Shown here piece after piece: positions 13,008 through 59,053 of a stretch of DNA of 64,000 bases (its first letter is position 1; each line of letters opens with the position of its first letter). The DNA lies in contig CM082590.2 of the NCBI GenBank assembly GCA_040954595.2, forward strand, positions 5,084,001 through 5,148,000, given 5' to 3'. Source of the DNA: Balanoglossus misakiensis (Eukaryota > Animalia > Hemichordata). Below the pieces are notes generated by a model. It was not told where the DNA came from. It ran no database searches and saw nothing but the letters and a program-made list of their open reading frames with translations. The position numbers and the translations under genes are program-made.

Positions 13008-13100
13008 ATTATCCTTCACATCGACGCTGGCATTGGATTGCAGTAGAAGTCTCACAATGTCACCATGGCCATTTGCATTGTGTAACGGTGCCCAACCATT
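13008..13100 (-). CDS. Ankyrin-repeat gene, coding exon 4 (93 nt, phase 0-0, in-frame 6-nt deletion): NGWAPLHNA--NGHGDIVRLLLQSNASVDVKDN
   Basis: ttgtattccctcag| acceptor and |gtaagt donor; paralog of the 99-nt exons lacking two codons. Confidence 0.85.
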
Positions 13101-34153: not shown

Positions 34154-35304
34154 TTGAAAGTTCCCGATCTCGTATCCTAAGGACGCCAGCAGAATTTCCC
34201 GCCGCATTTTAATTCTCATTCAAATATGAAAGAAATAAAACTCACCCGGTCTGAATTGGTTTGTTTAAAAGGGGAGTTAGGATAGGGTCTTCCTTCGGTA
34301 GTTTTGACCCGCAATTCGGCCTAAATCTACGAAACAAAGGCTTTAGAGAAGATATCTTATTTTTCCAATTTTCTAACGGAAGGCGTGTTTATGGCTAATC
34401 ATTTAAATCCTTTCCTAAACATAGGCCTAAAGAAAATAAACCTGGTGAAGACTGGTTGGTTTAAAGGGAGTTTGACTATGAATATGACTCGATCATTTGA
34501 AACTTCATACGACAGGTGAATTAAGTAACGCACTATATAGCGCGTATCAACTTTCAAAGGCCATCTCCGAAAATGCTCATTGTAATTTCACAAGAATTTC
34601 CGAAATAATTCTCAGAATTGCACTCAGAACAGCGGGCATAGCTGGCAAACATACTTATATCAATAACAATGTTTCAAGGACTATTTTGATTAGGCCTATA
34701 TAAGAAATCGTTTTGTAGATTCGGCGGTCAAAATTATAAAACGAAAACTAAGTTTAAGGTAGAGGTCTACTCAAAATCGAAAATACAATCTAATAGAAAG
34801 AAAAATACACGCCACTGATAAGTTAAACTGTCATTTTTCTAGAAGCGTCCGAAAGCTTTAATAATGTCAAATATACAAAATTTATAAAAATTGCGCGAAA
34901 TATGATGAAATCGCGCGCATCATGCAAGAACTATGACGTCATTCCACACTACAGCAGCCAGAGAAACAAAAAAATCACAATATTAATAAAATTGCCTACC
35001 TACCTACCCTCTTTTGAAAACCATGTAATTGGAACACATATATTATTTTTCTGTTGCCTAAGAGTGGAAGAGTGATGTTCAAACTTCTTCGACACGGTGA
35101 TGATTCTTGCTGCTGTGTTTTATGAGCGCTGAAGAAGATTTGTTGCAGATTGAGGAAGACCGAACAGTAACGAATTGCAGTAATCAAGTTTGTTTGAAAG
35201 AACTGCATGAATAAAAGTACAACAATCATTAGAAGACAGGTACTGACGTATTGATCTGATGCGTCGACGATGAAAAAACACAAGTTGTAGGGCCTACTCT
35301 CTTG

Positions 35305-35346
35305 AGTGAGGAGAAACCCTAACCCTAACCCTAGCCCTAACCCTAA
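35305..35346. repeat. Short telomere-like tract (left flank of YR element A)
   Basis: AGTGAGGAGAAACCCTAACCCTAACCCTAGCCCTAACCCTAA, the same unit as 48516-49116. Confidence 0.9.
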
Positions 35347-36589
35347 TTAGGGTCCAACGGGCATTAGGGGACCTGAGATTTCGGGCTCTAACCCTACTGC
35401 CTTGCCAATGTTTTTTTTACCCCTCCTTTTGATACAATGTAGGTAAACATGTAAACAACAACAACAAAAAATATCAACAAAAACAAGTCAACCCTTCCAT
35501 GTTTTTTAAGGTCGAGTCCCCCAATGCCCCACTTATGTCTTGTTTGGCCAAAAAAAGAGGGTTAGAGAAAATTGTTTGGATTTATTTTGTTATCTTTTAG
35601 GTTGTTGTTATTGATTTTGGTCCCCTGTCTAACCCCAGCCTTTAAAAAAAAACATTTTTAGAAAGGCCTAAAAAATGCCTTGGTGGGTATATGCAAGTTG
35701 CTCCAGACGGCAAGTCTAAATTGTGCATGGACGGATTTCTTGGTAGGTACTTTTAAATTTTACATAAACCATAACAAACTATCATTTTCCGAAAGGTCTC
35801 GGCGAGTTCTATAACATACTAAAATTTGACAAACTTTGAACCTGACCTTGAAAAGTTATTGCGGAAAAACCTATTGAAAAAAACATACTTTTTAAGGTAC
35901 GCGGTGTCACCCCCTTAATATAGTTGGAAACCACTGAAAATTACAGGATAGATTGATAATAAGTTGTTTTAATGTGGTGTGGTGAAAACATTTTGAAATT
36001 CGAAGGTCAAGGTCAACTTCGCCATTGCTTATAGTTGTTGGTTTACCTATGTCGGATTTCATTATCCTTTGACCTTTGACCTTGATATTTGGTACACAAG
36101 TAGAGTGTCTATCTATAAACTCTTGACAAAAGTTATATTGAAATATTTTAACATAAAAGCACTTTTTTGACCAAAAAGCAAACTTCTGTAAATTAGCTGT
36201 AAATAAGCTTTTTTTTAATATACACTTTGCTTTTTTAAGATTATTTTTTTATTTAAAGCATTTCAAGAATGAAACTTTCCAGAAACCATCATGAGATGTT
36301 TTAGAATATAAAAAAGTTTACACTTTTGAGATTGGACGCCATTAAGTATTCCAAATGTTGTTGCAAAATAGACTGAAATAATGCCCATAGACTTAACATG
36401 TATAAAAACAAAAGAATACATTTTTTGAACACTTGGTAATTTTTTTTAATGTATTTGTTTTGTCTTTTATATTATGATATAGAGTAGTAATTGCTCTATT
36501 CAAAACACTATTTGGTTTAAAGATCTGATTTCATTTAGTCTTTTATTTTAATTTATTCTACTGTAATAATGCATGTTCAAGTATAGGGA

Positions 36590-38130
36590 AAATATTCAGT
36601 TTTGAGGTTAAGTTTGCATTACTTTTAACACACTTAGGGTTGGCCGATCTTCAAACTGTAACCGGTTTTGAGACCACCAATAACTGCTCTAAAACATATT
36701 GAAGACCGGATGTAAAATCATTAAGAATAAATTTATAGGTGGGGCCACAATAAAGGGATGTAAAAGTAATTATTTCGCTTTAATTGCATGTTAAAGAATA
36801 GGAAAAAATGATAACATTAGAGAACCTATCATAAAATGTAAAATAAAGGAGCTTAAGAGCTGATTTTTCCAGGAATGATAGACATTTAAATTCTCTATTC
36901 TGGGGTACCTTAATATCTAAGAAATGTAGACAAGAAGTTATAAAAATATAATTATGAAACAAAATGGTTGTGCCCCATAGGCTTTACACTGTAGAAAACA
37001 GGGTGTCATAGGTAAAAAATTAGGAAAGTAAGAAAACATGTCATTTAAAGCTTGTAATTTTCAGAGACTGTTAAGAACATGTTGGGATACTACCTACATT
37101 ATTTTAAAGTTGTTACATGTACAGCAATGCCAGTAACTATGAATACAAACTAGGTAATTCATAAACCTCATATAGAAATTTTCGCTATATTGCTGCCTTA
37201 TTTTTGCCACACCTGTTTATTTATTATTAAAGATTTAACATTGGGTCTTCAATATGTTTTAGAGTAATAGTTGGCCATCTCAAAACAGGTTACACTTTAA
37301 AGATTGACCCACTATAAGTGTTACAGTAGTGTTGCAAACATTAGCTAAAACTTACATTTTCCCCTATACCTTAACATAGAAAACATCACTTTACTTTTGG
37401 CACACCTATTAATGTATTCTTAAAGATTTCACATCGGGTCTTCAATATGTTTTAGAGTAATAGTTGGAGATCTCAAAACAGTTTACACTTTAAAGATTGA
37501 CCCACTATAAGTGTTACAGTAGTGTTGCAAACATTAGCTAAAACTTACATTTTCCCCTATACCTGAACATAGAAAACATCACTTTACTTTTGCCACACCT
37601 GTTTATTTATTATTAAAGATTTAACATCGGGTCTTCAATATGTTTTAGAGGAATAGTTGGAGATCTCAAAACAGGTTACACTTTAAAGATGGACCCACTC
37701 TAAGTGTTACAGTAGTGTTGCAAACATTGGCTAAAACTTACATATTTTCTGTGTGAAATTTATGAATTACCTAGTTTGTATCAATAGTTTATGGCATTAC
37801 AGTACAGGTAACAACTTAAAAATAATGTAGGTAGTATCCCAGCATGTTCTTAACAGTCTCTGAAAATAACAAGCTTTAAACAACATGTTTTCGTACTTTC
37901 CTAATTGTTTACCTATGACACTTTTTTCTACAGTGTTAACCCAATGGGGCACAAACATTTTGTTTCATAATTATATTTTTTATGACTTCTTGTTTGAATT
38001 TGAAAAACAACAATTCCCCTACAGCATAGAGAATAAAAAGGTTTATCTATTCTGAAAAAATTAGAACTTAAGCTTCTTTTGAAAAGATTTTACAGCAATT
38101 TCTAAACTTGGCCCATAGGAATACATGCAT
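36590..38130. repeat. Large imperfect inverted repeat with a central ~190-bp x3 tandem; homologous to 50740-53330
   Basis: 36780-37180 is inverted at 37750-38130; 37200-37745 holds three inverted copies of 36590-36790. Confidence 0.8.
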
Positions 38131-38555
38131 TAAAATAAGCTAGAAGATAGGCAATTTTTAACTTGGCGACATTTTTTCAAAAAGGTTTCGTTTTATGCTT
38201 ATTGAAACAAATATCTTACAATCCGATACATGGTTTTGAAGCTTAGATTCTGCTCTCGCTAACCGCTGAAACCGTTTTTCAAGAATCGTAAGAATGAAAT
38301 CAGAGAGCCAACGATTAGGATTAGTTACAATCGTAATTTGCACACACTTCTGGGTTTCGGCTAATTGTACGCACATACTTTTTAAAAAAGGCTTCGTTTA
38401 TTGCTTATTCTAATAAATATCTAACAATCCAATATATGGTTTTAAAGCTAAGAATCTTGGCTTTCTAACCGCTGAAATCGTTTTTAAAAAATCGTAGAAA
38501 ATGAAATCAGAGAGCCGTCGATTACGATTTGTAATGGTTGTATTAGGGTTATAGT

Positions 38556-39972
38556 CAGGTGGAAATTTCAGAAAATGAGCATTTTAAAAGCATGTCAGGC
38601 ATTTTTTGGTACAAGCTGGGAACAAGTTGTTTTTGGATATTTCGAATACGCTGATTTCGAATTTGCCTGTTCCCAAAAATTCTTTTCACGTTTTCATGTC
38701 GAAAATGGCAAATTAATTGGTGACGTCATAATTTCAAAATACCTAAAAGAAAACGCTGTTTGTAGCCATTATGGTGCAATATCACAGGTCAACACCATAA
38801 TAGTCTATTGAAATCATATTCTTATATTCATTTAAATATTTTTAAACAATTTTTTTAATTTAGAAACATTTTGTGAATTGGTAAAATGCTAATTTATGTT
38901 AATTAGGTCCAGGTGGAAATTTCAGAAAATGAGCATTTTAAAAGCATGTCAGGCATTTGTGGTACAAGCTGGGAACAAGTTGTTTTTGGATATTTCGAAT
39001 ACGCTGATTTCGAATTTGCCTGTTCCCAAAAATTCTTTTCACGTTTTCATGTCGAAAATGGCAAATTAATTGGTGACGTCATAATTTCAAAATACCTAAA
39101 AGAAAACGCTGTTTGTAGCCATTATGGTGCAATATCACAGGTCAACACCATAATAGTCTATTGAAATCATATTCTTATATTCATTTAAATATTTTTAAAC
39201 AATTTTTTTAATTTAGAAACATTTTGTGAATTGGTAAAATGCTAATTTATGTTAATTAGGTCCAGGTGGAAATTTCAGAAAATGAGCATTTTAAAAGCAT
39301 GTCATTCATTTTTTTGGTACAAGCTGGGAACAAGTTGTTTTTGGATATTTCGAATACGCTGATTTCGAATTTGCCTGTTCCCAAAAATTCTTTTCACGTT
39401 TTCATGTCGAAAATGGCAAATTAATTGGTGACGTCATAATTTCAAAATACCTAAAAGAAAACGCTGTTTGTAGCCATTATGGTGCAATATCACAGGTCAA
39501 CACCATAATAGTCTATTGAAATCATATTCTTATATTCATTTAAATATTTTTAAACATTTTTTTTAATTTAGAAACATTTTGTGAATTGGTAAAATGCTAA
39601 TTTATGTTAATTAGGTCCAGGTGGAAATTTCAGAAAATGAGCATTTTAAAAGCATGTCATTCATTTTTTTGGTACAAGCTGGGAACAAGTTGTTTTTGGA
39701 TATTTCGAATACGCTGATTTCGAATTTGCCTGTTCCCAAAAATTCTTTTCACGTTTTCATGTCGAAAATGGCAAATTAATTGGTGACGTCATAATTTCAA
39801 AATACCTAAAAGAAAACGCTGTTTGTAGCCATTATGGTGCAATATCACAGGTCAACACCATAATAGTCTATTGAAATCATATTCTTATATTCATTTAAAT
39901 GTTTTTAAGCATTTTTTTAAATTTAGAAACGTTTGGTGAATTGGTAAAAATGCTAATTTATGTTAATTAGGT
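38556..39972. repeat. Satellite-like tandem array, 4 x 353-355 bp, near-identical
   Basis: CAGGTGGAAATTTCAGAAAATGAGC at 38556, 38910, 39263 and 39618. Confidence 0.97.
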
Positions 39973-40784
39973 GACACGCCCATCTAAAATCAATGGTCTA
40001 CAAAAGAGAGCCAACAGTGTTAAGTGAGGTGTCTATTGCAATGTTTTCAGGGTCAAGGAATTCAAATATGCAATCGATTACCTTGTCAAACAAGGTACAG
40101 CATGGAAAATATGCAAAATTAACTTAATTACTCACGATGTCATGCTAAAATTGACAATTGAAAGCTAATGATACGACTATGGCCTGTGAGGTGTCTATTC
40201 ACATGTTTTTTGGCAAATGTTTGCATTTTAATGAATAACTGAAATGAAACTTTTCATATTTGTATGTAATAGCATGTAAAAAACAACAAAAAACAAACAA
40301 AGAAACATACACAACGAGGATTTAGTTTAGACTGTACATGCTCGTTGGTAACATCGTGACCGATCGCTCCGTTAAAAAAACACCAGAACATTGAACGTAT
40401 GAACGTTTAGGTCCACAATTCACAAGTTATTGAACTATGAATGTATGTTCAATGTTGTGAAAAGCCAAAAACATACTTTTTGCCAACAAAACTGGCATTT
40501 GTTAACGTACAAGTTGTTCATTAATAGCGAAAGCATCGTATGGCCACACTCACATTATGCCAGCACCGTATATTCATGCTTAGTTATAAGACGTTGAATG
40601 CACACTGATGGCCCGACGTCCTCGGTGTTTTATTGAAACCCGGTCTCTAACAACAATATCTCTTCATAAGTAAAGAGTAATGTGTATTTTTATTACGTTT
40701 TTATATATGATACTGTGTGCAAAGTGAAGATTGTGTCAGTGAGGCAACATATATACATGTATGTTTAATCCACTTGGGTGTCGT

Positions 40785-42980
40785 ACTTGGCTCAGATGTG
40801 TGTACTAAACAAATTCAGATAGCGAGCCACAATATCTGTTGATGAGTTTTCATGGCAATCATTTTTTTAATTTTTTCGAAATGGCCGCCAATACAGATAA
40901 TCTCACCCGCAAAATAACAATTATAAAACACCACAATAAATTCATATTACAATATTTGAAACAAGAAACTGCTCAAATTTTCAAAAAATATATCATCACT
41001 AAACTAGTTATAGGGGTAAATACAGGATCGAGATTCAGTCGCTAAAGAAATTCAAGTTTGGTAATAACCCCGGTTACAACAAACTTAGTTAAAACACTGT
41101 ATAACCATATATATATTATAATAGTGGCCTGGCATAAACACAATTTTCGTAACATTTGGGCATTTTGTGATAAAAGTTTAACAAGTAAAGCTCAGTTGAT
41201 TCGTTATTTTCCCCATAAAAATATCTTTGATGAACAAAATTCCAAATTTAGTCAACCCAGGAAAAAACGGCATCTTGTTTCTCAACCTTATAAATTGATC
41301 TGACCAGTTTGAATTAGTGCAGAATCCAGCTTTTCTATTTTATCTTCATCAAATGATTCATGCAGATAAAGAATCACTTCCCCATAAAATGATGGCAGAA
41401 ATCCAGTATCATGACAGTCGATTGGTTTGTTAAAGTTACTATAGAAACTAACTATATGTCTAGGGTGCATGTACATAGATAGATGTTAGGAATCAAAATC
41501 AAAATCTGTTTCAAACTTTTCATCCAATACTTGTCCTTCGGAAAGCGTTTTGATGAAGTCGCTTGAAGTGCTTTGTATCATGTTATCGATAATTTTAATC
41601 ACACCTTGATGATAGTCAGCAGTTCTATTTTGACATGTTATTTTGTGTATTTGTGAACACCCAAAAGAATAAAATGATAAAGTGAAAATAAGCTTCAAAA
41701 CACCAAAAGTCTTCAGGATCACAGCTTTTCTGTAAAGAGTAAGATTTCGCTTACTTCATGCTATTAAATGAAATGAAGTTTTCCGTAATATCTCTTGCAA
41801 AGTCAGATCTTTACACATTGAGATATTAGAATGGAAGTACATTCCAAGTGACTTGTTGGGAGCCTTGGGGCACCTAATCCCAGAAAATTGCAATAAGACC
41901 TGTTTTTCCATTTACCAATCTAAAGGCCAACTGCTTGTATATTTAGTTGGGTTTCTATAATTAACACACATTTTTGACAATATTTATGGCATGATGGACA
42001 CTATTCTCGACAAATAAAATAATGTTGTGTCCTCCGGTGTAATTTTTATGAGTTTGGAATCATAGACACCATTTATCTTTTGGTCAACTCTGTTAACAGT
42101 CGCCAAAATTGCTGGAGTGGAACTGATACATGATCTAAAGTATCAAGACATATGGTCGATTATTAACGTTTCAGCAATTTGACTTAAGTTTCTTTAATTT
42201 CCTATGGCATTTTGACAAACATTAACGCCCCGAAAAAACGTTGTCAACGCTGCGGTGGCGATTGTGGTCGAAACAAAGCCGCTTGGTTCGTTACCCGGGG
42301 TCCATTTAGATTGCATTGCGTTTGAGGCCCTATGTCTGTCGACCAATAAACGTGACGACCGCGGACTCAGTTTGGATCAACGTCTATTTCGGGCAGTGGA
42401 CTCTCCTATCAAGTTGATAAGGAAATTTTACCAGTCACGAGTAAGCCAAGCCCACATCCGTGTGCAATTCGAATAAATCGGTGATCTGTTTATATGATTA
42501 TCATTAGCTAAGGTGGTAAAGTGTTGTGATTCATATGTGTAATTTACGTACTGCAAGTTAAATATCGCAATTAGCCTAATGTTTGACCATAGACAGTATG
42601 GTTTGACTTCTAGAGGAGCACCTATTAATCTGAAAGGGATTAAAAGTTGTGCCTTTAAATTGTGTTTTGATAACTTACTTACCCCTATAAGTAGTTTAGT
42701 AACCATAATATCTTTGCAAATCATTCATTCCACAGTTCCTTGTATCAAATATAGTAATCTAAATTTATTTTGGTGTTTGCAGATGTTATTTGGTGGGTGA
42801 AATTATCTGTATTGGTGGCCATTTTGAAAAATTGGTTGCCATGGAAACTCATCAACAGATATTTAGTGGCTCCCTATCTGAATTTATTTAGTACACATTA
42901 ACACACATCTGAGCCAAGTTTGGTGCTTTTATCACAAAATGCACAATCGCTATGAAAATTAGGGTTTGGCCGCTCCACTA
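40785..42980. mobile_element. Academ-like non-autonomous element with long TIRs (left tip missing), carrying a LINE remnant
   Basis: 40785-40905 is inverted at 42800-42920; right terminus ...GGTGCTTTTATCACAAAATGCACAAT...GCCGCTCCACTA. Confidence 0.6.
41150..42200 (-). pseudogene. Highly decayed L1/Tx1-type LINE RT C-terminal fragment
   Basis: Reading through stops gives KSLGMYF...IA*SKRNLTLYRKAVILKTFGVLKLIF, resembling KYLGI...W..R.LSL.GK..I.K.L..SKL.Y. Confidence 0.55.
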
Positions 42981-43845
42981 CGGGGCTTTAGACGGCCATA
43001 TGGAATTGCCACATCGAGGCTCTTGTCTCAAAATGAACTTCACACTTGAAGTATTGTTTTGAACAAGGTTTAAGTCCTTTATTAAAATAAAGAAAAGGTA
43101 ATTTTTTCCAATGCTTGTGAGTTTTCAGTACATGTACTGTTACACCTAGCTTTATTATTATTTGGTAGCCAAAAATCAACGAATTATTCATACAATATGC
43201 AAATTTTGCATAATTATTGTTGCTATTTTGTGTTTATACAACCAAAAAAAGTTGTTGATGTAAACATGTAGTTTAGTTTCATTGTTTAAGGAGGTACGTG
43301 AACATTTCTTTGATGCTATTCATGTGAGAATTGCGATCCTTGGCGGCCATTTTGATTTGCCAAAACGAGGCTCTTATCTTACAACCATTTTCGGGTTTCG
43401 GCGACAGGCTGACGAATATGCTATTTTTAAGAGTTTGCTTTAATTATTTCACGAATCCAACATATCATGAGAAAGAGCGGATCTTGTGCTTCCCAACGAT
43501 ATACATGATTTTCTTATTTGTTTTTATTTTCAATACATAATTCATTGATTTTGTAGCACACTGTCAAGCACGATGCTTGCTATTGCATTTAAAATACGAC
43601 TCCCTAACTTACTCTTAATCTTACTTCCCACGAAACCTCGGTTTTCTCGTCGACGAAAACATTAAATCTACGTTATAATGCATTAGAGATACAGTTTAAA
43701 CCGCTAGCAAAAGGTACTCTATTTACTTAAGAGTCCATCTAAGGTTTTTCCCGAGTTTGTGCGCTACTCCAGTCACTCATTTGCTCAAAGTATTTCGTCC
43801 GTCAACCGCTATTCAAGGCACTCATTCAAGGCACTCATTTCTTAA

Positions 43846-44641
43846 GATGGGTCCCTGGGATCTTTTTGCTCGTTGCTATGGGCCTTTATAGGACACTACA
43901 CTCAATTTTGATCGAAACCGTTATGAACGTCCGACAAGGGGCTTGTAACTAGTTAAAAATACGCATGATTGTGTGCACACCCCCTGTCTGAGTATGTTTA
44001 CGGCAGCTACCGCCCGGCCATAGGCCGCCACGCTAATACGGCAAAGCCGCGGTCAGAGATAGCGTGCGCGTCCTGTAACCACAGTAACTGGATCGAACGC
44101 TAAAAATCCAATGTTTTGTACACAGAGATTTTGTACCGTTCACGAAAATCCCTAAGGCTTTTTTTCACAGGCGACGTAGGCCAGCCAAATTTGACCTGCT
44201 TGTTGAGAACGCACTTCCGCATAGTGTGACGGATCGTTTTTTCGGTTTTCGTCGTGCTAAGAAGCGATACCAGTGGAAGAGTGCGTCCAAAAACACCCAA
44301 AATCGATGACTTTTTCAGGTGTGGTACGGGTATGCTGAAATCGTAGGATACAACGATAATATTCGAAAACAAAATCCGTCACGATCTTCCCTGGTTCAAG
44401 CAACTAATGAATACGTATCAAGTTCGTTTTTGAGGTCACGGAATAAAAAGCCTTAGGCTTTTGAAATTTGACCTAACTAATCTGCATATCAATGGCGTCA
44501 GGGGGCGCGCGCTCACAATCGTGCAGATTTTCAACTAGTTACCAGCCCCTTGGTAGACTCTGAAAACGGCTTAGTCCAAATCGGGGTGTAATGTCCTATA
44601 AAGGCCCATAGCAACGGGCAAAAAGATCCCAGGGACCCATC
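43846..44641. mobile_element. Kolobok-like MITE inserted into the repeat array upstream of the YR gene
   Basis: TTAA|GATGGGTCCCTGGGATCTTTTTGC...GCAAAAAGATCCCAGGGACCCATC|TTAA; ~55-bp TIR, TTAA TSD, RR...YY ends. Confidence 0.85.
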
Positions 44642-44675
44642 TTAAAGGTCATCATTGATTATTTTGTTCTTAGGT

Positions 44676-44853
44676 TCGTCAAGAGTAAACCGCTATTCAA
44701 GGCACTCTTTTTCTGTAAGGTCACCATTTATTATAAGGTTCTTTCGTCCGTCAAGAGTAAACCGCTATTCAAGGCACTCTTTTTCTGTAAGGTCACCATT
44801 TATTATAAGGTTCTTTCGTCCGTCAAGAGTAAACCGTTATTCAAGGCACTCTA
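44676..44853. repeat. 72-bp tandem repeat carrying a 29-bp dyad motif; further copies at 47051-47079 and (partial) ~43800
   Basis: AAGAGTAAACCGCTATTCAAGGCACTCTT at 44681, 44753 and 44825 (variant). Confidence 0.92.
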
Positions 44854-44859
44854 TTCACT

Positions 44860-47052
44860 ATGTCTAAGAGAGTATTTGGTAGTTCATATTGTGATATTTC
44901 TGATTCTGGTTCACACTTGTCAGGTGTTGAAGCTCTTCCAGTTGAATCATCTGACACAGAAAGCATAGAAATTCCACCAGCTCGCAGTGCAGGTAGGCCT
45001 AAGCGACTCTTTCCGGCTAAATATTTCTATGGGTCTAATAAGAAAAAGCAGAGGAAATCAAAACAGCCAAATAAACAGGATTTGAGGAAAAAAATTGACT
45101 GTCCAGTAGATGACTGCTCTGCCAAAGTGTTCAAGCTTAAAAGGCACCTAATGCAGATGCATGATGTCCCTGAAATGAGGGCGTTATTGATGACATCAAA
45201 GCACGCAACAACAAAAAGAATGGAAAGAGGGGCAAATCGAGACAGACCTTACCATCAATGTCCCCTCGATTGTGGTGCTACGGTTAAAAGACTGGACAAG
45301 CACCTGATGAATACTCACCGGTACGAGAGGGGGGATCCTCGTCTGGCGAATATTTTAGCCGACGCAAAAAAAAAATCTTACAAAAAGGCCGCGTTAGAAA
45401 GGAAGGCTCGTAAACAATCAACCGTATCAAACGCATCTAAACAAAACGAGCACAGGCCCAGAAGCCGAACAAGACGGGACCGGCAGGGCATAACGGAAAA
45501 AAGAAACCGCTCTCCCAGAAGCCCCCAGCAGGCCCCAGTTAGGGAAATAATCCCTGTAGTCAGAGAATCATCTGACGAGGAGTACATAGTACCACCTAAA
45601 CGTTACCGGCGTATCATTCCCCCCGCTAATAGTGATGAGGGTGAGGTCGAAGATGTGAGCGAAATATTAAATTCGTTTGAGGCCCACCTTTTGACTGCAG
45701 ATGGAGGGCGCCGATCACAAACTTCGGCCAAACAGAATAGGTCTCAGGTAGGCCGCCTTTTCCAGTCATTGGGGTCCCTTGAAGCAGTGGGAGATAGACA
45801 AAAAGTTCTTAATTTCATTGAAAACACACCCAATCTTAAAGTAAGTTCCGTAAGGAGCTATCTATTTTCATTTGGTATGTTTTATAACTTTTGTTCATGC
45901 AGCACCCCACCTCTCCTCCCAGGCAAAGCAGATCTGATGCACAGATTAGTTTTAAAATGGGCTACTAGCTACAGGAAAGAGGTAAATCAAAGGTCTGCCG
46001 AATTCCAATCCGAAGTGGTGCACCAGCTGATAACACATGCCAAATTTAGATCCTTTGAAAATAGCAAAACGGCAAGAGATGCCTACAAAATTATTGCATC
46101 TGCTGGGAAGAAAACCAAAGTTAGCGAACAGGAATATAAAACTGCTAATGGGTATATACTGGTCTGCATAGCCCTGGATTCTGCCTAAAGATCTGGAGCG
46201 CTGCGCAATGTAACAATCCGCGACTTCAATAAAGCGGTTGAAACCGACAACGGTCATGTTGTTTTAGTCGCAGAACATAAAACGGCCAGCTCCCATGGCG
46301 TGGCACGTTTGGTATTTACCAGGCCTCTATATAGAATAACATCACTTATGATTAGAGACTTGTTGCCTAAAACACCAGGTGGAAAAAAACCCACAAGGAG
46401 ACTTTTCTCAAGTTTTTGTGGAGAGCAGCTAAGTAGCTCTACTTTCGCCAAATTCTTGGCTGATTCCTGGCGGAAATCAGGAGTTTCAAAAAAGAAACTG
46501 ACAAGTACTATTTGTCGAAAGAGTATGGTCACCATGGTTTTAGACACCCAGCCCGAACTATCGAAGAAATTGGCTAGCCATATGAGTCACAGGGAGACGA
46601 CCCAGGCATCCTATTATAGGATTGCTGGAGCTGTGCAGGAAAGTTCTAATGTCATGCAGGAAACAAGAAAAATTAGAGATGGATTAACATCAAAAAGTAA
46701 TGCAAAAGTTGAAATTGGTCAAACAGAACCAAAGGAGGAGGAGAAAGTAGAGCCAATGGACACTGGGGAGGATGATACAGCTGTAGATCCTCTGGAAATT
46801 GTGGATTCTGAATCCATACATGCACCCTCCACTACCGAGCAGTCGCACGTCTTCTCTGGAAGACGAAGCTTTTCAATAGACCAAGTTGAACTGATAGAAG
46901 GAAGATTTAGAAAAAACATCTTGGAAAAATGTGTCACTGCTGCCCAGGTTAGGCAAGTAATGGAGGAAGACCCTGATTTTAAGGGCAGGTTCCATGGATA
47001 TACGGTGAAGCAAATTGTAGACAGAATCCGGTGTAGTTTCAGAAAAAGATAA
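44860..47052 (+). pseudogene. C2H2 zinc-finger + tyrosine recombinase + C-terminal Myb/HTH-like protein, 730 codons with one in-frame TAA (46186-46188)
   Basis: ORFs 44860..46188 and 46300..47052 are in the same frame. Two C-x2-4-C...H-x4-H fingers are present. YR motifs: DSA*RSGALRN (R), EHKT (K), TICRKS (R), ASHMSH (H), QASYY (Y). The sister copy reads DNAQR at the stop. Confidence 0.88.
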
Positions 47053-47509
47053 GAGTAAACGGCTCTTCAAGGCACTCTTTTCCCGGTGTAGTTTAAGAAA
47101 AAAGTAAAGTTAGTTGTATACCAGAAAGCAAAAAAAAAAAAAAAAAAAAAACACTGGCATGACACATGCAAAAATACATTAACAAACATACTGAACACAC
47201 ATTCATATGCACCAAACATACTTACACACACTGACATTACACATGCATGCACAAACATGTTCTTTGTTACTGTTTTTGTTTTGTTATTAATGTTTAAAAA
47301 GGAAGACAAGAAGACTGTTGAAGATAAGAAGAAAAAGAAGAAGAAAAAGAATGTTATTTGTTGTAAAAAAAGGCACAGAGAAATAAAATAAGTGTGTCCA
47401 ATTGGTGTCTCAAATGCTATGTCTGATATATTAAAAATAGAGACATGCATTTGATATCCCAGTTGAAACACACAAAACCTCAGCTACGGAGAGTACAAGG
47501 GCATATTGG

Positions 47510-47800
47510 AACCCTCAAAAGGTAGACATTCAAGAAGGAATAGGTAAAAAACAACAACAATAAGGCGAGTAAAATGTGTGCTTTATTAGTGTAAACATTG
47601 CTTTATTTAATCCCTCAAAAGGTTGAAATTCAAGAAGGGAGAGGTAAAGAACAACAGCAATAAGGTAAGTAAAATGTTTGCTTTATTTGTGTAAAACATT
47701 GCTTTATTTTATCCCTCAAAAGGTGGAAATACAAGAAGGAAGATGTAAAGAACAACAGCAAATGGGTGAGTTAAATGTTTGTTTTATTATTGTAAATATT
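47510..47800. repeat. ~100-bp tandem repeat x3 downstream of the YR gene
   Basis: CCCTCAAAAGGT at ~47512, 47612 and 47713. Confidence 0.8.
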
Positions 47801-48307
47801 GTTTGAATAACAATGGTAAATGAAGTTAATTATGTGTGACCTTGAAACTAACGTTGCATTCAAAGACATTCAAACACATTTGAAAACTGTTAACACTTAA
47901 AATCCTAAAGAATTTTATGTTTTTCAATGTTAAATACAAGATGAGGTGTGAAATAAACAATTTTTAAAAAAGGTCATTTTCAACAAATTATATGTTTTGT
48001 TTGATAGCCTATAAAAAAATAAGTTGAGTGTGGTTGAGTATGGTTTTTTATTTGTTGTAAAAGGAGAAGATTTGCTCTCTAAAACTGTTTTCAGAATGAA
48101 AATCGGACATCATTAAGTAGTCAAAAAAATTATTGAAAAAGTATGGAAAATAAATATTTTCAAATAAAGTTTTTTGTATCAAAAAAAAATAATAAACTAA
48201 AGTTAACTAGCTAAAGGTATGTATTAATGAAAGATGTATGAATTGAAACCAAAAAAGGGACTAACCCTCTTGACCTTGACCTAACCACGCCTAAAAAAAA
48301 AAATTCG

Positions 48308-48512
48308 GGTCCCCTAATGCCCAACTTATGACGTAAGTTGGGCATTGTGAGACTTGATGTTGGGCATTCGGGGACTTGAAGTTGGGCATTCGGGGACTTG
48401 AAGTTCGGCATTAGGGGACTCAGGTCCCTCAATGCCCAACTTCAAGTCCCCCAATGCCCAACTTCAGGTCCCTCAATGCCCAACTTCAGGTCCCCGAATG
48501 CCCACCGGACCC
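48308..48512. repeat. Palindromic array of ~nine 22-bp subterminal motifs (GAAGTTGGGCATTCGGGGACTT)
   Basis: One reverse, four forward and four reverse copies; single copies at the left end (35359 forward, 35514 reverse). Confidence 0.9.
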
Positions 48513-48515
48513 TTA

Positions 48516-49116
48516 CCCTAGCAGTGAGGAGAAACCCTAACTCTAGCCCTAAAACTAACCCTAGGAGTGGGAGAAACCCTAACCCTAGCCCTAACCCTAG
48601 CAGTGAGGAGAAACCCTAACCCTAGCCCTAAAAATAACCCTAGGGGTGGGAGAAACCCAAACCCTAACCCTAGCCCTAACCCTAGGAGTGGGGAGAAACC
48701 CTAGCCCTAACCCTAGCAGTGATGAGGAACCCTAACCCTAATCCTAGCCCTAACCCTAGCTGTGAGGAGAAACCCTAACCCTAGCCCTAAAACTAACCCT
48801 AGGAGTGGGGAGAAACCCAAACCCTAACCCAAGCCCTAACCCTAGCAGTGAGGAGAAACCCTAACCCTAGCCCTAAAACTAACCCTAGAAGTGGGGAGAA
48901 ACCCAAACCCTAACCCTAGCCCTAACCGTAGGAATGGGGAGAAACCCTAGCCCTAACCCTAGCAGTGATGAGGAACCATAATCCTAACCCTAGCCCTAAC
49001 CCTAGCAGTGAGGAGAAACCCTAACCCTAGCCCTAAAACTAACCCTAGGAGTGGGGAGAAACCCAAACCCTAACCCTAGCCCTAACCCTAGCAGTGATGA
49101 GGAACCCTAACCCTAA
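48516..49116. repeat. Interstitial telomere-like satellite: CCCTAA/CCCTAG runs punctuated by (GC/GG)AGTG(A/G)GGAGAAA spacers
   Basis: About 600 bp of CCCTAA, CCCTAG and CCCAAA hexamers in a higher-order repeat. Confidence 0.95.
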
Positions 49117-50739
49117 TTAGGGTCAAAGTGGTCCTCCGTGTAACCCGAATTCAAAGGTCTACCAAAAAAATCATTATGTTTTTCTAAGGTTATAAACACT
49201 GTAAGTGATAGATTACAATAAATTATTTATTTTAAGTTATTGGAGCTCTAACCCTTGTATATTTCAGGGTGAAAACAACTCAGGTAACATAGAGGACCAG
49301 TTTATCGGTTAAGGTACCATAATGGAATTGGTTAAAAGCATTTTGGTTGACCCTAATAAGTAATCCAGGTGTTATTCAATTGTATAAGTGTCCCCTTCTA
49401 CCCCCCTGCAGGAAAACAAAGTGAAAAAATGTTGGTCCAAAAAAATGTAGTAAAATTCTTATACTTACTGTGAACTGGCTGCATCAGAAAAAAACGAAAT
49501 CTTCACAAGCATGATTTTTGGCATAAAAATCGTTATTTCACCGAATTTTGAAAAACCTTTGGCACGTTTGTAATATTTTTGATGCTAATTTTATTATACC
49601 AAAATTTTAAAAATTCATCAAGATTTAGGAAAATTATTCAAATAACCAGTGTTGGGGACCACTTTGATGTTACCTGTGTATTGTCTATGGGCGAAAATGC
49701 GACTTTTTTAAATTGTTGCAATTTCATTGTTATTAAACATACAGCTGTCAAACTCACATATTTATTAACGTTGACATAACAGATTTCAAAACTAGTTTCA
49801 GTTTTAAAATCGAAGGTCGCTAATGTGAGTTGTAGGTTACAAAAAACATACCAAAGGTAAATTTTAAAATTTTCATGCTTGTTTTGTTCGGAGCACTCCA
49901 GTTTGTTTATTTCTAAAGCTTTCACTTTGATTGTTCAATATGTTGTAGATATGAAAATGTTCTTTTAAAAACAGGTTACACTTTTGAAATCGGTGGATGG
50001 GAAGTTGACCAATTAATGCCATGTATGAGGTGCACCCGAAATTAACTGTATCCTGATTTTTTTTTTTAAATATACACTTTGCTTTGTTAAGATTATTTTT
50101 TTTATTTTATGCATTTCAAAGATGAAACTTTTGGTAAACCATTATGAGATGTTATAGAATATTGAAAAGTTTACACTATTAAGATTTGACACCATTAATT
50201 ATTTCAAATAATGCTGCAAAATAGACTGAAATAACTCCCATTGACTTAACATGTATAAAAACAAAAGAATAAGTTTTTGGGGACACTTGGAGATTTGTTT
50301 TTATGTTGAAAACTCGGCGAAAAATGGTTTGTTTTATGCTTATTCTAACGAATATCTTACAATCCAATATATGGTTTTTAAGCTCAGATTCTGGGCTCTC
50401 TAATCCTGAAAACCGTTTTCCAAAAATCATAGAAATAAAATCAGAGAGCCAACGATTACAATTTGTTACGATCGTATTTTGCACTCACTTCCGCGTTTCG
50501 GCCAATTGCAGACAAATACTTTTTATAAAAGGCTTTGTTTTATGCTTATTCTAACAGTTATCTAACAATCCAATATATGGTTTTAAAGCTTAGAATCTTG
50601 GCTCTCTAACCACTGAAACCGTTTGTCAAAAATCGTAGAATCGAAATCAGGGAGCCAACGATTATAATTTGTTATGGTCTTTTTTCGTGTGTAGGGTTAG
50701 GTACTTAGGGATTTGGGCGACAGGCAAAATCCTCAGTTT

Positions 50740-53330
50740 TTTTAGGTTAAGTTTACATCACTTCTGACTCACTTAGAGTGGGCCAATCTTTAAAGTGTAA
50801 AGTGTTTTGAAATCGTCAATTACTGCTCTAAAACATGTTAAAGACCGGAGTTGGTATCTTTTAGAATAAATTAATAGGTTTGCTACAAAATAAAGTGATG
50901 TTTAAGTGATTCTTTTGTTTTTATGCATGTTAAAGAATAGGATAAATTATAATATTTGTGACCCTATCCTGATTTGTACAATGAAAGTAGCTTGAGTACT
51001 GTTTTTTTCAGGATGTATAGACATTTGAATTCCCCATGCTATAGTACATTATTTTTTTGAAATGTAGACAAGAAGTTATAAAACTGTAATTATGAAAAAT
51101 AATGTCAGTGCCCCATAGGCTTTACACTGTAGACAACAGGGTGTCATAGGTTAAAATTTTGGAAAGTAAGAAAACATGTTGTTTAAAGCTTGTTATTTTC
51201 AGAGACTGTTAAGAACATGATGGGATACTCCATACATTTTTTTAATGTTGTTACATGTACAGCAATGCCATTAGCTATTGGGTCAAAATAGGTAATTCAT
51301 ATATCTCACAATGACATTTTTGTTATATTGCCATGTGTTTGCAAAGTTGCTTTAAACACTTAGCATCGTCCAATTTTAAAACAGTTTTCTGTTTTGAAAA
51401 GGGTATAAAAAACTACATAACAGATTGAAGAATCAAATATTAGGAATAAGGAAACTGCATTGTTCCAAGAAAGGTGCTGTCAATCGACAAAGTAGACAAT
51501 ACTGTTTGACCCCTTTAACAGCATATATTATCACACAAAATTGACATTGTTGTACCACTCTGGTTTCTTTATTTATTCAGCAATGAAGTTCACACTTTAA
51601 CAATATATTAAAAACATATTGTTCTTTATAATACATATGAAACAGTTTTAAAATCGGATAATGCTAAGTGTTTAAACCAACTTTGCAAACATATATTGCA
51701 ATATAACAAAAATGTCATTGTCAGATTTATGAATTGCGTATTTTGACTCAATACCTATTGGCATTACTCTACATGTAACAACTTTTAAAAAATGTATGGA
51801 GTATCCAATCATGTTCTTAACACATTCTGAAAATAACAAGCATTAAACAACATGTTTTCTTACTTTCCAAAATTTTAACCTATGACACCCTGTTGTCTAC
51901 AGTGTAAAGCCTATGGGGCACTGACATTATTTTTCATAATTACAGTTTTATAACTTCTTGTCTACATTGTCTCATTTAGAGTGGGCCGATCTTTAAAGTA
52001 TAACCTGTTTTGAAATCGTCAACTACTGCTCTAAATCATATTGAAGACCTGATGTGGTATCCTTAAGAATAAATTAATATTTGTGCCAACCAAAAAGTGA
52101 TGTTAAAGTGATTCCTTTGTTTTTATGCATGTTAAAGAATAGAACAAATGATAAAACTTAAGACCCTACCCTAAGATGTACAATAAAGGAGATTTAGTAC
52201 TGATTTTTTCAGGAAGAATAGACATATACATTCTCTATTCTGGAGTACAATAATATTAAATAAATAAAGACAAAAGTTATAAAAATATAATTATGAAACA
52301 AAATGTTTGTGCCCCATAGGCTTAACACTGTAGAAAACCAGGTGTCATAGGTAAAAATTTAGGAAAGTAAGAAAACATGTCGTTTAAAGCTTGTTATTTT
52401 CAGAGACTGTTAAGAACATGATGGGATACATACATTTTTTTAAAGTTGTTACCTGTACAGTAATGCCAGTAGCTATTGATACAAACTAGGTAATTCGTAA
52501 ATCTCACATGGACATTTTCGTTATATTGCCACTTTATTTGGCACACCAGTTGATTTATTCTTGAAGATTTCACATCGGATCTTCAATATGTTTTAGAGTA
52601 ATGATTGGCGATCTCCAAACAGGGTACACTTGTCTACATTGTCTCATTTAGAGTGGGCCGATCTTTAAAGTATAACCTGTTTTGAAATCGTCAACTACTG
52701 TTCTAAAACATATTGAAGACCTGATGTGGTATCCTTAAGAATAAATTAATATTTGTGCCAACAAAAAAGTGATGTTTAAGTGATTCTTTTGTTTTTATGC
52801 ATGTTAAAGAATAGAACAAATGATAAAACTTAAGACCCTACCCTAAGATGTACAATAAAGGAGATTTAGTACTGATATTTTCAGGAAGAATAGACATATA
52901 AATTCTCTATTCTGGAGTACATTAATATTAAATAAATAAAGTCAAATGTTAGAAAAATAAAATTATGAAACAAAATGTTTGTGCCCCATAGGCTTAACAC
53001 TGTAGAAAACCAGGTGTCATAGGTAAAAATTTAGGTAAGTAAGAAAACATGTTTAAAGCTTGTTATTTTCAGAGACTGTTAAGAACATGATGGGATACTA
53101 CATACATTTGTTTTAAAGTTGTTACCTGTACAGTAATGCTAGTAGCTATTGATACAAACTAGGTAATTCATAAATCTCACCTGGACATTTTCGTTATATT
53201 GCCACTTTATTTTTGGCACACCAGTTGATTTATTCTTGAAGATTACACATTGGGTCTTGAATATGTTTTAGAGTAATGATTGGCGATCTCCAAACAGGGT
53301 ACACTTTTAAGATCGACCTACTCCAAGTGT
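50740..53330. repeat. Inverted repeat (51070-51400 vs 51640-51965) plus ~670-bp tandem duplication (51960-53330)
   Basis: TGTCTACATTGTCTCATTTAGAGTGGGCCG at ~51959 and ~52631; reverse-complement arms surround 51420-51620. Confidence 0.85.
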
Positions 53331-54020: not shown

Positions 54021-54055
54021 TGTAAGAATAATGTGTGTATATGTGTGTTTGTCTT

Positions 54056-56014
54056 TTAAGTTGCTTTTTCTCTCTTATCCACCCTATTAATTCTGTCCTT
54101 TCTTATTCTTAATTGACGTACGGACACAGTTTCGAATTTGTTTGGTTGAGAATTCCGCCATTTCATCAGCCAAAGTTGGGTTGTCTTCTTGTACTTTTCA
54201 ACATCTTTGCTGCTAACTTTACCAACTGCTATCTCTTCTGCAAACATTTCTTTAATGGCTTGCTAAAAGTGTGACGGCCGTGTTCAATTCCATGGCCTGA
54301 AGTTTGACTTATATTGTCCCCCACCCTATACCAGGGCTGCCAGTCATCTCCACACCACCCTCATCTGTATTGTCAACAAAAGGCCTTTTGGATATGGCCA
54401 GTTTTGAAAACAACTGATTTGGGTGGTGGTCAATGCTGGGTGGTGCTATGCTTCCAACTGAACTCTCATCATTTCATATTACTCAGTTGCACTCACTTTC
54501 ATTTTTTCTCTTCCATTTTTTATTCGCAACTATCTTGGAACACAATTCACGCGTTGAATAGGTAACACTCGCAGATTCCTGCACACCTTTTGTCATGGCA
54601 TAAAAAGATGTCTGTGAGCGGGAACTTTGTGCCATGTGTGATGCGAGGGGCACTGCAAGATCAGGATCGTTCAGCAAAACATATGTAACGGTGGATTTGC
54701 ATAAAATTGTTGTGGTCAGTTCTTTTGAAATGACATCCGCGAAGCGCCAGGCAGCTTTCAGCGTCTTCGCAAACGTACTCGAGTTAAAATCCCTGCCATG
54801 ATACATCCTGAACAATCTGGTAGAGTTATCATTCTCCCCCCCCCCCACCCCTCACAAAAGGGTAATACGTGTTCAATCTACATCATAGCCTGTTTATACA
54901 GTGTAGACGAGAAAACAATTCTCGCGGGCCCTGATGCTGCTGAAGTTTTATGTGCCGCAACAGTCACAACAAACCCCTTGTCAGTCTCTTTTGGCTGCTC
55001 TAACATCCCCAACTGTTATATTTTTATAGGCACAATTTCTTTGTGCATTGTCTAGGACTAGTTGCACCATAATGTGGCCTGACATTAAGCAAAAATCTTC
55101 TCGTGAAACCCCTTGTCAGTCTCTTTGGCTGCTCTAACATCCCCAACTGTTATGTTTTATAGACACAATTTCTTTGCGCATTGTCTAGGACTAGTTGCAC
55201 CATAATGTGGCCAGACATTAAGTAAAAATCTTCTCATCAAACGTGTGGTCTGCCCTCCCCCACATAGCTAAACTCCACAAAAGCCCTGTTGGCGTGGATC
55301 GCCATTTCGCACGTCTCATAGGATGCAATCTCCTCAGGAGTTAAGAACTTCTCCTGTTCTGCATCCTGAAAAACACTTCTCCTTAATTTTACTTCTTTTG
55401 TCAGACTCTGAGCCCAACGTCTACTATGATTTATCATCTGGCGTGCATTTTTAATAAAACCATTATGTTCTGAATCGAGAAAATGATAAAAAAAAGTCTC
55501 AAAGAAAAAATATATGACCGAACTGTTGAAGCTTCATAAGGCTTGAGCATGGCTTCAAGACATTCCCTGACTTTTCCCTTTTCACTCAAACCTTCCCCCC
55601 CCCCACCCCACCCAAACAGACTCAACCAGTGTTTCATCCTGAGCTGGATGCTGGATGGCTGCTTTCCCAAATTTTCTCCCCCCATCCATTCCCTGTATCC
55701 ACTTTTTACAATCAGTTATAATAATATTTTCTGTGCTTTCCATCACCCCTACCCTCTTTCTCTCTAATTTCTGCCTCCAATTCTCTGTCTGTTTCAATAA
55801 CCCCCACCCCTCTCTCGCCTTCTGAATCACTTCTATTTACTGATTCGAAATCTCTTTCTCTTTCACTAACCCTCTCCCCCATCTCACCATCACTTTTATT
55901 ATTTCTGACTTCTAAAGATCTTTTCTCCCCTTCCCTACAACTTCTTTTGCGATCTTCCTGCCCTACATTGCCCTTTTCCCTCTGCTGTGTAATGTATTCC
56001 CTTTTGAGTCGCAA
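54056..56014 (-). pseudogene. Second tyrosine recombinase gene of the same family, multiply frameshifted
   Basis: Fragments align in order with the 44860-47052 protein: GMDGGRK/TADGGRR, STVRSYIFS/SSVRSYLFS, RWAQSLTKEV/KWATSYRKEV, AHKTSAASGPARIVF/EHKTASSHGVARLVF, SSTFAKTL/SSTFAKFL, LASHMAQ/LASHMSH, GVQESA/AVQESS. A ~135-bp duplication lies at 54972-55235. Confidence 0.88.
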
Positions 56015-56069
56015 TGCAACTCTAGCAGTTTGGGCCAGTTAGTATTTTGTATTTGGGGTGTCTGGTACT

Positions 56070-59053
56070 AATTACCCTTCGGCTCCCAAGAAAAGGACAA
56101 GGACAACTCTTTGGCAGGAAATATAGGAAGTACTTTTTATTTGCAAGACTCCACCTTACAGAAATTAAATAAACAATAAACTCAAGTACAGGGAAAATAA
56201 ACTCATGTAATAATGTTCTGAAGGCGTAAATGCCTAAACTAAACACTTCGCCGAATAGAAAGGCTGCTAAGGTATTACAAAAGCAGAGAGCTCCCAAAAC
56301 ACGCACGCAGCATCTCGGGAAAGAGCTGTGTGTGAACTGCGCATATGCAAACTGGCCGATAGAGGGCTCACTAACCCGATGAGTAATTAGACAGAATGAC
56401 ACATTATTAAACAAATTACCATTCGGCTGCCAAGAAAAGGACAATGACAACTCTTTGGCAGGAATTATAGGAAGTACTTTTTATTTGCAAGACTCCACCA
56501 AACGGAAGTACCGGCCAGAGAGTTGTCCAAATTTAAGTTAAAGCAATATATAAATTAAATAAATAGAAAAATTCTAAAATTGACACGCTAACAAGACCTG
56601 CTGATTTGAAACTAACAACTCTGAAACTGTGACTACAAGTCATAACATGTGAAATACAGGCGGGTGGACAAGGGAATTTTAACATAACGCTCATAGGCGT
56701 CTGAGCGCCAATCCCCGTGGAGTTTGATCAGGTCTGGGGGAACCCCTGCTGCATGGGCCAGGGAGGCTCCACCCCTACGCAAACTGTGAGCAGAATAAAG
56801 TTTGCTGTCTTTGCTAATGGCTTCCAGTAGTTTGCCAAGAGCCGATGAAAACGATGAAAATGTCAGACTGACAAGCTTCCCGTTCTGAGGGTAAATGGCT
56901 GATCTCTCGCGGCCGGCACCGAGGAGAGCATGAGTTTAACTGCCGACACAGGGCAAAGGGGGCTGCCAGGCAACGCTGCTAGCGGAATAAAGAGAGTGCG
57001 CTCATGACACTGCAGTGTCTTGGACCAACGCACTGCAAGCATAACGTGCTTATCACTAAATGCAATATCGCGCCTGGTGAGGTGGCGATTGCGATCAAAT
57101 GAGTGCTTGGAGGGAGGAACCAAGTTCGATTTCCTCAAAAAGGCAAAGAAGCCAATTAAAACAGCGCACCAAACTGTTAAATGAAACTTGCTGGAAAGAT
57201 CAATAAATGTTGCCATTTCCTCCAACATGGGAACTGTCAAAGGCAACTTCTGAGAAGGTGTGTGGACACTGCTTTTTCTGATGCCTGTGAGCGCCAATTT
57301 GAAATCCAGGCATTCGAAAGGTTCCAGGCTGTGGCCGGTCAGTATATGAAGTGTCTTGACACCTGCAATATAATTGGTAACGGATGCAGGACTACTAAAC
57401 GACTTGCTAAGAAACTGGGCATAAAGCGCCAAAACTGTGGACGTTGTAGGCACCGCTTGCAAACCGTAGTGAAGTGCAAAACTGATATAGGAGCGGAACT
57501 GAATATTCAGGTTCCTGAGCGTACCGGGACGAAAGGCTGCTAGCCGGGAGTTCTTGACCTCTTGTTTTAATAACTCCAGATCTTGCTGCACAGCTGCAAA
57601 TAAATTAAAATAAGACGTTTAGTGAAAACAATGCTTCTGAAGGACGAGTTTCTTCAAGAAGTTTATCTCCTGTGAGTGAGGCAAAGGTGTCGCGGTACTT
57701 GCGGTCGAAATGCCAGCGTGACAAGCAATCGGCAATGCTGTTCTGAGCGCCAGGAAGATAGCGCGCTTTCAGCTCGGAGTTCTCGCGCGGCTGACATGAG
57801 AAAGGGGTCGCGACCGCGGCCGGTGTTAAGAACCTGTACCGTGCTGCTGTTGTCACTGTAGACTAGAATGCGCAGGCCTGTCCATTTGTCACCACAAAGT
57901 CTGGCCGCCAATACGATGGTGAGCATTTCAAGGCAGTGGATAGGCTGTTGCTGCTGCAAGACAAAATCTGGGAATGGGGCATGGAAATACTGTGAGGCTG
58001 AGATTCCACCACATCCTTAAAGGCAAGCATCTGTACAAATAACGCTGTTGGGTGTGGACCAGACCAGTTCCGGAATAATCGAAACGCCAATATATTGCCT
58101 AAGAAAAGAGATCCACCAACTGATATCTTGCTGGAACTGCACGTTTAAGTAAATGTGATGCTGCGCCGACTGGACACAACGTAGCGTGTCAAGCATGCGG
58201 CTAATAAAAAGACGGCCTGCACGAACACAGCTAGAGACAAATGAAAGCTTGCCGATAAGGACCTGCAACTGACGTCTAGTGGCCTTTTTCCTGCCTGACC
58301 AATGAGCAAGAAGCTCTGAAAGCTCAGTGAGCCTGTCCTCTGTGACTAAAAACGAGAGACAAGTTGTGTGGGTTACAGCTTTACCAAAGGCTTCCTGTAG
58401 ACCTAATTCAGAGAGAAGAGACCGCAAAGCTGAAAAGGCGGACTGGGCCCGTATAAGGGTGTCTGAGTCGCAAAAGTCATCCAAAAAATTGACTGCGCTA
58501 GGCTTAACTGGTTGATCCACACTAATTTGGGGAGGGTTTCTGACGAATCTGGTATGCAGGTTGTCAAAATCGTCGCCCCACTCCAACAACGCCTGCTCAA
58601 GGTATTGTAAAATTATTGAGTGGTATTTACGGACCCTCTCCGAAGAATACAACTGAGCGTCAGTGACAATGTTTTGCAAGTGTGCTAAACGATTCACAGT
58701 TGAAGCATTATCTAAACTCATCCCTAATATGATCTCCAGTTCACTCGATACCAGCTGTGGTAAAGTCAATTCATCATAATTGCCTCTGGTTTGCGCGGGT
58801 TGGGGTCTCGGATGTATTCGTGTGGCCATGGTATGTACATGAGAATCCTGTCTGTTGGTTTCCTCTTGGCGCCGCTTTTTATTCTTTTACCTTTTGTCCT
58901 GGTGGTAGTCGATGGCTGGAGAAGCCTGTTCCTCGTCCTCGTGCGCGGAGCGTTCCGTTTCTCTTCTTGTTTCTTCCCGTCGCCATGTCTGCTGTCTGCA
59001 TCGTCGCTGGAGAAGGTTTCACCGGATGATTCTGAAGAACTGATAGAAATGTC
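56070..59053 (-). mobile_element. DIRS-order retrotransposon, Ngaro-like (split direct repeats), internally deleted
   Basis: Gag-like region 58500-59050 fused to an RT remnant (FLDDF, LIGKLSF), RNase H (TDACL, LEMLTI, SDN, NSIADCLSR) and YR 56685-57591 (FFAFLRKSNLV, WSKT, HSLRRGGAS, GDWRSDAY). ~85-bp direct repeats lie at 56070-56155 and 56414-56499. Confidence 0.9.

Follow-up and report, generated by a model that had tools for sequence, protein, structure and literature searches.

The window analysed here, a whole stretch of 64,000 nt, contains a tyrosine recombinase (YR) gene that has been inactivated by a stop codon and that appears to belong to a CryptonV-like transposon integrated site-specifically into a degenerate TTAGGG-type repeat; a probability of about 0.6 is given to this reading. 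The gene is an intronless frame of 730 codons at 44860-47052 on the forward strand, with a single internal stop and no frameshift. The element around it likely spans 35347-48515, i.e., about 13 kb including later insertions (Table 1). There is good reason to believe that it works like CryptonV, a likeness drawn from the descriptions in citing papers and not from Repbase sequences, and the TTAGGG-type target repeat is probably new for CryptonV-like elements. Targeting of the telomeric repeat itself is plausible, somewhat better than an even chance, and is based on one site.

Table 1. Features of the element and of related sequences in the window (positions counted from the first letter of the window).
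Feature	Position	Strand	Details
Left flank, one unit of degenerate CCCTAA/CCCTAG array	35304-35346	+	95% identical to 49049-49090
Predicted left terminus	35347-35376	+	A single subterminal motif, reversed, 12 nt from the end; another at about 35515
Repeat-rich segment, left arm or independent repeat	36209-38550		Also at 50061-53330; 80-85% self matches
355-bp tandem array and high-copy repeats	38556-43378		Likely later left-arm insertions
Non-autonomous TIR element with TTAA duplication	43846-44641		143-nt inverted arms; TTAA on both sides
72-bp repeat, 2.9 copies	44645-44852	+	Bears 12-nt motif; GTGCC core on reverse strand
Two short C2H2-type fingers	45100-45318	+	aa 81-101 and 134-153; conservation; pLDDT 86-97 in finger blocks
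Core-binding and catalytic tyrosine-recombinase domains	45655-46701	+	aa ~266-614; R444, K474, R553, H577, Y586
Nonsense codon TAA	46186-46188	+	Codon 443, directly upstream of Arg444
C-terminal helix-turn-helix (HTH) domain, homeodomain/Myb class	46867-47046	+	aa 670-729; model pLDDT 91.7
22-bp subterminal repeat array, both orientations	48308-48504		ATGCCC core; candidate arm-type binding sites
Predicted right terminus	48486-48515	+	25/30 inverted match to left terminus
Right flank, degenerate telomere-type array, interstitial	48516-49116	+	601 bp; 28 CCCTAA, 25 CCCTAG
Second terminus-like sequence after CCCTAACCCTAA	49117-49135	+	13/19 to left terminus by eye
Decayed sister recombinase, same family	54030-56040 (about)	-	Core and tail remnants

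The case for the element ends rests on position and register together. When 35347-48515 is removed, the flanks rejoin in the register of the array at two equivalent offsets (40/42 and 41/42), while 15 other offsets gave 24-32 of 42. The two termini are imperfectly inverted copies of each other, and their match at 25/30 was the sole one of at least 19/30 on either strand of the window. A longer local alignment of both ends was marginal (score 42, compared with a 95th percentile of 37 and a maximum of 90 for random window pairs), and for this reason the ends are not argued from that alignment. The left junction reads CCCTAA and the right one CCCTTA (5/6), and both are inseparable from the target repeat. 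CCCTAA/CCCTAG hexamers make up 53% of the bases in the 601-bp array on the right; each unit has a non-telomeric interruption of 12-13 nt, and a single unit (43 bp) is present on the left. Within the 64-kb window, tandem CCCTA[AG] hexamers were found only in kb 35, 48, and 49 (294 bp, 0.46%). The array is interstitial and degenerate and is not a chromosome end. An earlier note on this DNA (44860-47052), made from the letters alone, had missed the element but connected the recombinase with TTAGGG; that the element appears to sit in a TTAGGG-type array supports the connection with evidence that the note did not cite. A preference for TTAGGG is not thereby established, since one insertion site and one doubtful second end were seen. 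The second end is the sequence that follows the array at 49117, which from its letters is possibly the terminus of another element. The 12-nt palindrome at the junction has two copies in the window, with 0 expected; homology between 35347-36200 and 49117-50050 was not above that of shuffled sequences (38, with a median of 35 and a maximum of 45 for shuffles). The segments 36209-38550 and 50061-53330 are paralogous; each is a block of nested tandem repeats and long inverted repeats that begins about 0.9 kb past a CCCTAA-TTAGGG junction, and the two may mark a second element from 49117.

Comparable ends were seen in relatives. One subgroup of the family, which comprises 14 of 152 proteins and is not the clade closest to the window protein, was aligned and used in a scan of metagenomes; this yielded 61 related loci, most of which are too short to include element ends. 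The loci contain eight dinucleotide tracts of at least 10 units, seven of the tracts being AG/CT. An end-type motif borders the tract in L001, L009, L013/L014, L032, and L050, and L044 has such a motif beside an imperfect tract. Seven related loci, representing six distinct elements, have their end at (AG)n/(TC)n; that of the window copy is at a CCCTAA array. The tract of L059 lies away from any element end. Over the 10.4 kb that lead up to the (AG)n, L013 and L014 are 100% identical, and past it they differ. In L044, L032, and L050, judged by eye, the layout is that of the window, with the C-rich strand on top: the left end has a C-rich repeat and, 13-14 nt in, a single reversed motif, the gene is on the forward strand, and on the right a forward motif array stops 8-10 nt short of the C-rich repeat. 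The corresponding distances in the window are 12 and 12 nt. The orientation of the gene relative to the ends is the opposite in L001, L009, and L013/L014. No telomeric-repeat end was found among the 61 loci. At L044:380-660 and at L013:11570-11826 a single (TC)n/(AG)n tract has an element end on either side, which means that one microsatellite received more than one insertion.

A different explanation of the site is that the CCCTAA array is part of the element, or a small co-located repeat family, and that the element has no preference for telomeric repeats and reached its position through another target or by chance. The array units with their 12-13-nt interruptions, and the single unit on the left, would be consistent with this, as would the short CCCTAA tracts that occur inside small insertions in such animals. 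The sole perfect telomeric tract among the 61 loci is of this kind; it lies in L024, within a 320-bp insertion (L024:4147-4467) that is missing from the otherwise near-identical L010 and L017. Moreover, the end of L013 beside (AG)n likewise begins with TTAGGG, and therefore the terminal hexamer may be a trait of the family. On the other hand, the array runs on in register from one flank to the other once the element is removed and is absent elsewhere within 64 kb, and the relatives use simple repeats with the same polarity, which makes this explanation unlikely in comparison with insertion into a pre-existing array.

The recombinase family is large. In a phmmer search at E <= 0.001, 1,024 clusters among 1.84 billion representatives matched the protein, and the best 150 of these together with one further protein were aligned (151 homologs). 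The five catalytic candidates R-K-R-H-Y named in the earlier note are all present and near-invariant in the rows with a residue at the respective column, namely R444 in 148/149, K474 in 148/150, R553 in 141/143, H577 in 140/141, and Y586 in 131/135. The His of HxxR is replaced by Thr550 in the window protein and by Thr in 112/141 homologs, in the column of the XerA His. The proposed recombinase core was also supported by structure comparison: with the AlphaFold model (mean pLDDT 78 for the whole recombinase, low confidence in the charged linker at aa ~190-260), Foldseek placed XerA at the top (E 1.7e-5), followed by Cre, lambda Int, and Tn1549 Int, and a profile of 114 homologs matched XerA at E 3.2e-5. 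The Pfam match to PF00589 (E 0.001) was below Pfam's cut-off, and phmmer of the whole protein against the PDB gave 0 matches. As modelled, the core folds as a tyrosine recombinase, and the protein is a putative enzyme.

Both of the C2H2 fingers that had been proposed are conserved among the homologs. In finger 1 (C81-x4-C-x9-H-x4-H101) the four Cys/His positions are kept in 60/63, 65/66, 67/69, and 81/86, and in finger 2 (C134-x3-C-x9-H-x4-H153) in 85/87, 85/89, 88/97, and 86/92. The spacing from Cys to His is 9 in both and is thus shorter than the 12 of classical C2H2 fingers. By a simple pattern, two fingers were counted in 58 of 152 proteins, one in 21, more in 4, and none in 69, many of the last being fragments. 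The tail was found in 101 of 114 testable homologs (102/115 with the query), with two tail copies in 41, and therefore the order of fingers, recombinase, and tail, which had been called unusual, is the norm in this family. The tail is absent from the predicted proteins of the four closest homologs (P0003, which is XP_070576810, P0004, P0005, and P0007 among the best 150 of the 1,024). Among 20 representatives that were looked up, the best match was from the hemichordate Ptychodera flava (34%), and the named coral homologs were from Dendronephthya, Desmophyllum, and Paramuricea.

The internal TAA is, as had been stated, the only interruption of the frame, and judged from the sequence the copy is inactivated by it, with a predicted product truncated ahead of the catalytic residues. 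Since 4.7% of single changes in the frame create a stop, one lesion in 2,190 nt would fit a decay of about 1%, with a wide error. A ciliate-type code, in which TAA is read as Gln, is rejected: the frame has 30 CAA/CAG codons and no TAG, and its terminal TAA coincides with the place where the homologs end. A stop-skipping intron is similarly rejected, the homologs being colinear across N-A-x-R-S-G. The sister copy does have the CAA (Gln) that was attributed to it at the matching codon (55176-55174, and again at 55043-55041 in a 133-bp duplicated segment), but it is not a close copy, with 36% identity to the window protein over 190 aa and many stops and frameshifts. Its Gln is weak evidence of the ancestral state, because the column is variable among homologs (n = 149; Asn 51, Ser 31, Gln 20, His 19) and because the sister is so distant and decayed. 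No left end of the sister element was found. In two runs of one sample, at least two variants of the recombinase gene span the stop position, one with 1 difference and the other with 25 differences and 14 gap letters. Inactivation may be recent, as the earlier note suggested, though the left arm of the present copy probably bears later insertions, and active copies of the family may exist.

The tail had been expected to be a Myb/HTH-like helical bundle, and it was modelled on its own (30-row alignment) as a confident three-helix HTH that carries D-R-x-R in its third helix and a basic arm at the N terminus. Foldseek gave no significant match for it, the best being the MATalpha2 homeodomain (E 0.95). 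In VIA-align, homeodomains ranked first (Z 5.6, rmsd 2.3, 53 aligned), followed by ARR1 (Z 5.2), the telomere-binding homeodomain 4j19 (Z 5.0, rmsd 2.7, 61 aligned), and hTRF1 1w0t (Z 4.7, rmsd 2.7, 52 aligned); all Z values were below 8, and homeodomains and hTRF1 are to be regarded as tied. By sequence, nothing relevant was matched in Pfam or the PDB and no Myb/TRF entry was hit. On the model, the tail is thus an HTH of the homeodomain/Myb class and not specifically TRF-like. The telobox motif in helix 3 of TRF-type Myb domains is KD[RK]WR. Neither this motif nor a Trp at the column, the equivalence of which was set by eye, was seen in any of 133 tail copies (0/133), and xD[RK]xR was seen in 58/133, including (AG)n-ending relatives. 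The tail shares the three-helix HTH and the basic N-terminal arm with the TRF1/TRF2 Myb (telobox) domains and with homeodomains, but it differs from TRF1/TRF2 in having no sequence similarity, no conserved Trp core (a core described for TRF-type Myb domains in the excerpted text of PMC2377444), and an extra short helix.

These results bear on the suggestion, made in the earlier note, that the tail is a TRF-like reader delivering the recombinase to TTAGGG. This would leave the element itself unchanged, and the position inside a CCCTAA array, the basic arm, the D-R-x-R of helix 3, and the scores of hTRF1 and 4j19 within 1 Z of the top would all be in accordance with it. The structural ranking gives TRF1 no advantage, however, as ordinary homeodomains are top-ranked and no Myb/TRF sequence match exists, and each of the seven related loci (six distinct elements) that end at (TC)n/(AG)n encodes this tail too. 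The TRF-type role is therefore doubtful, and a tail with diverged specificity is hardly more than a slim possibility. Since relatives that end at (TC)n have the tail as well, its binding site is more likely to be the conserved subterminal motif than the target, which varies.

It is far less probable still that the gene is a relic of a nimavirus-type endogenous virus or a domesticated host gene. The nimaviral recombinases that insert into telomeres also have C2H2 fingers and 5/7 key residues, according to the partial text of PMC10871703. But the 13-kb element has no other long frame, the relatives are single-gene elements with ends, and three scans of viral contigs returned 0 relatives; the junction pattern had 0 matches in viral contigs as well. 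Foldseek against viral models found generic integrases only (9-18% identity), and word-index homolog searches gave one protein each, with no named viral or Repbase-like homolog. The stop codon and the decayed sister speak against conservation as a host gene.

Among known systems, the preferred reading of a CryptonV-like transposon in a TTAGGG-type array is compared mainly with Cryptons. CryptonV (Kapitonov and Jurka 2012, Repbase Reports) is listed in the parts seen of PMC5753468 and PMC13465017, and its families are described in an excerpt of PMC8869645 as inserting specifically in microsatellites, the same source calling target-specific DNA transposons rare in eukaryotes. A single tyrosine recombinase gene without a reverse transcriptase (RT), microsatellite-specific insertion, and cnidarian relatives are common to both; the target differs, (TC)n being replaced by a degenerate array of the TTAGGG type, in so far as CryptonV is known from citing descriptions. 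In the portion consulted of PMC3212892, Cryptons are YR-only DNA transposons without terminal inverted repeats, presumed to move via a circle, with short (4-6-bp) terminal direct repeats as the recombination substrate, and the animal CryptonA/I have a DUF3504-type YR, no C-terminal domain, and no terminal repeats. The element resembles Cryptons A/F/I/S in having no other enzyme between its ends but differs in its tail, its inverted ends (25/30), and its subterminal arrays; the protein had no match to DUF3504 at E up to 10 and none to GCR1_C. Nimaviral recombinases with C2H2 insert in the arthropod telomere motif, and their hosts are endogenous viruses of 280-580 kb at (TAACC)n (excerpts of PMC10871703 and PMC7016691). 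They have in common with the present protein the C2H2 and YR domains and insertion in a telomere motif of the host, with 5/7 key residues on the nimaviral side, and differ as large viruses at (TAACC)n from a one-gene element at a CCCTAA array. The nimaviral YR tree took in CryA, F, I, and S and left out CryptonV, as far as the seen part of PMC10871703 goes. In the literature searched, insertion into telomere repeats through a tyrosine recombinase was described for giant crustacean viruses only, and among animals no account of a one-gene YR transposon that targets TTAGGG was found, Repbase being outside the scope.

By analogy with the Crypton model (PMC3212892, in the part available), an intact enzyme would cut the element out in circular form, in which both ends would be joined into a near-palindromic core site and the 22-bp subterminal repeats would serve as arm-type sites. 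A simple repeat rich in C would be the partner with which the circle then recombines: (TC)n for relatives, (CCCTAA)n at the window site. The fingers and the HTH tail would most likely read the subterminal repeats, and the choice of target may more likely lie with the core-binding and catalytic domains and the terminal 9 bp, which resemble the hexamer. More tentatively, and at appreciably less than even odds, a family of one-gene animal transposons could be retargeting a Cre-like recombinase between simple repeats, the lineage in the window having changed from (TC)n to TTAGGG; this would be a small, non-viral element homing to telomeric repeats, possibly the stock of the nimaviral telomere integrases, with tail and fingers as swappable readers. 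With its single gene, defined ends, and arm-like repeats, and with naturally intact relatives at another repeat, among which L013/L014 have an 803-aa frame and L032 an 875-aa one, such an element makes the choice of a simple repeat by a recombinase, and the domain responsible for it, testable. If the TTAGGG preference fails, the copy is an ordinary dead member of a large, thinly documented family.

Within 35347-48515 the recombinase is the only frame longer than 138 aa, and no RT, DDE transposase, or viral frame, nor an RT-RNase H of the DIRS/Ngaro type, was found there. A motif matrix trained only on 47 units from the terminal arrays of seven relatives had its densest bin at 48250-48500, with 11 of the top 150 matches (4 in the next bin); it also matched 35373 and 35515, and the best single match ranked 10th. 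The make-up of the left arm is uncertain, since the repeat-rich segment at 36209-38550 recurs at 50061-53330. Read depth at 42500-43300 was in the thousands to tens of thousands, with a joint at 43379. A contig of run X1 joins 43379 to sequence resembling 50355-50403, which has its paralog at 38.2-38.5 kb, and this suggests that 38.5-43.4 kb consists of later insertions. The same contig skips the high-copy TIR element upstream of the recombinase frame, which we take to resemble Kolobok. The 12-nt motif of the 72-bp repeat also occurs at 43812, 43825, and 47066, thus flanking the frame, five times before it (43812-44852) and once after it; it has a GTGCC core in common with the terminal motif of the family, and these could be autoregulatory sites.

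The rest of the window looks like animal DNA and contains LINE and other repeats. A retroelement remnant at 56100-59160 (reverse strand), which was labelled DIRS-like by eye, lies immediately 5' of the sister recombinase; it has an RT-like frame at 58017-58886 and YR-like frames at 56633-57618, and Pfam gave no family for it. A fragment at 59896-60252 on the reverse strand, without a match in Pfam, presumably resembles a Gypsy-type integrase. A frameshifted LINE (198-3226, reverse strand) has an AP endonuclease and an RT by Pfam, and 3500-15000 contains several kb-scale segment copies, dispersed or tandem, about 2.9-3.6 kb apart and 70-98% alike. A probable MITE with 169-nt inverted arms and a 6-bp tandem repeat is present at 33623-34153.
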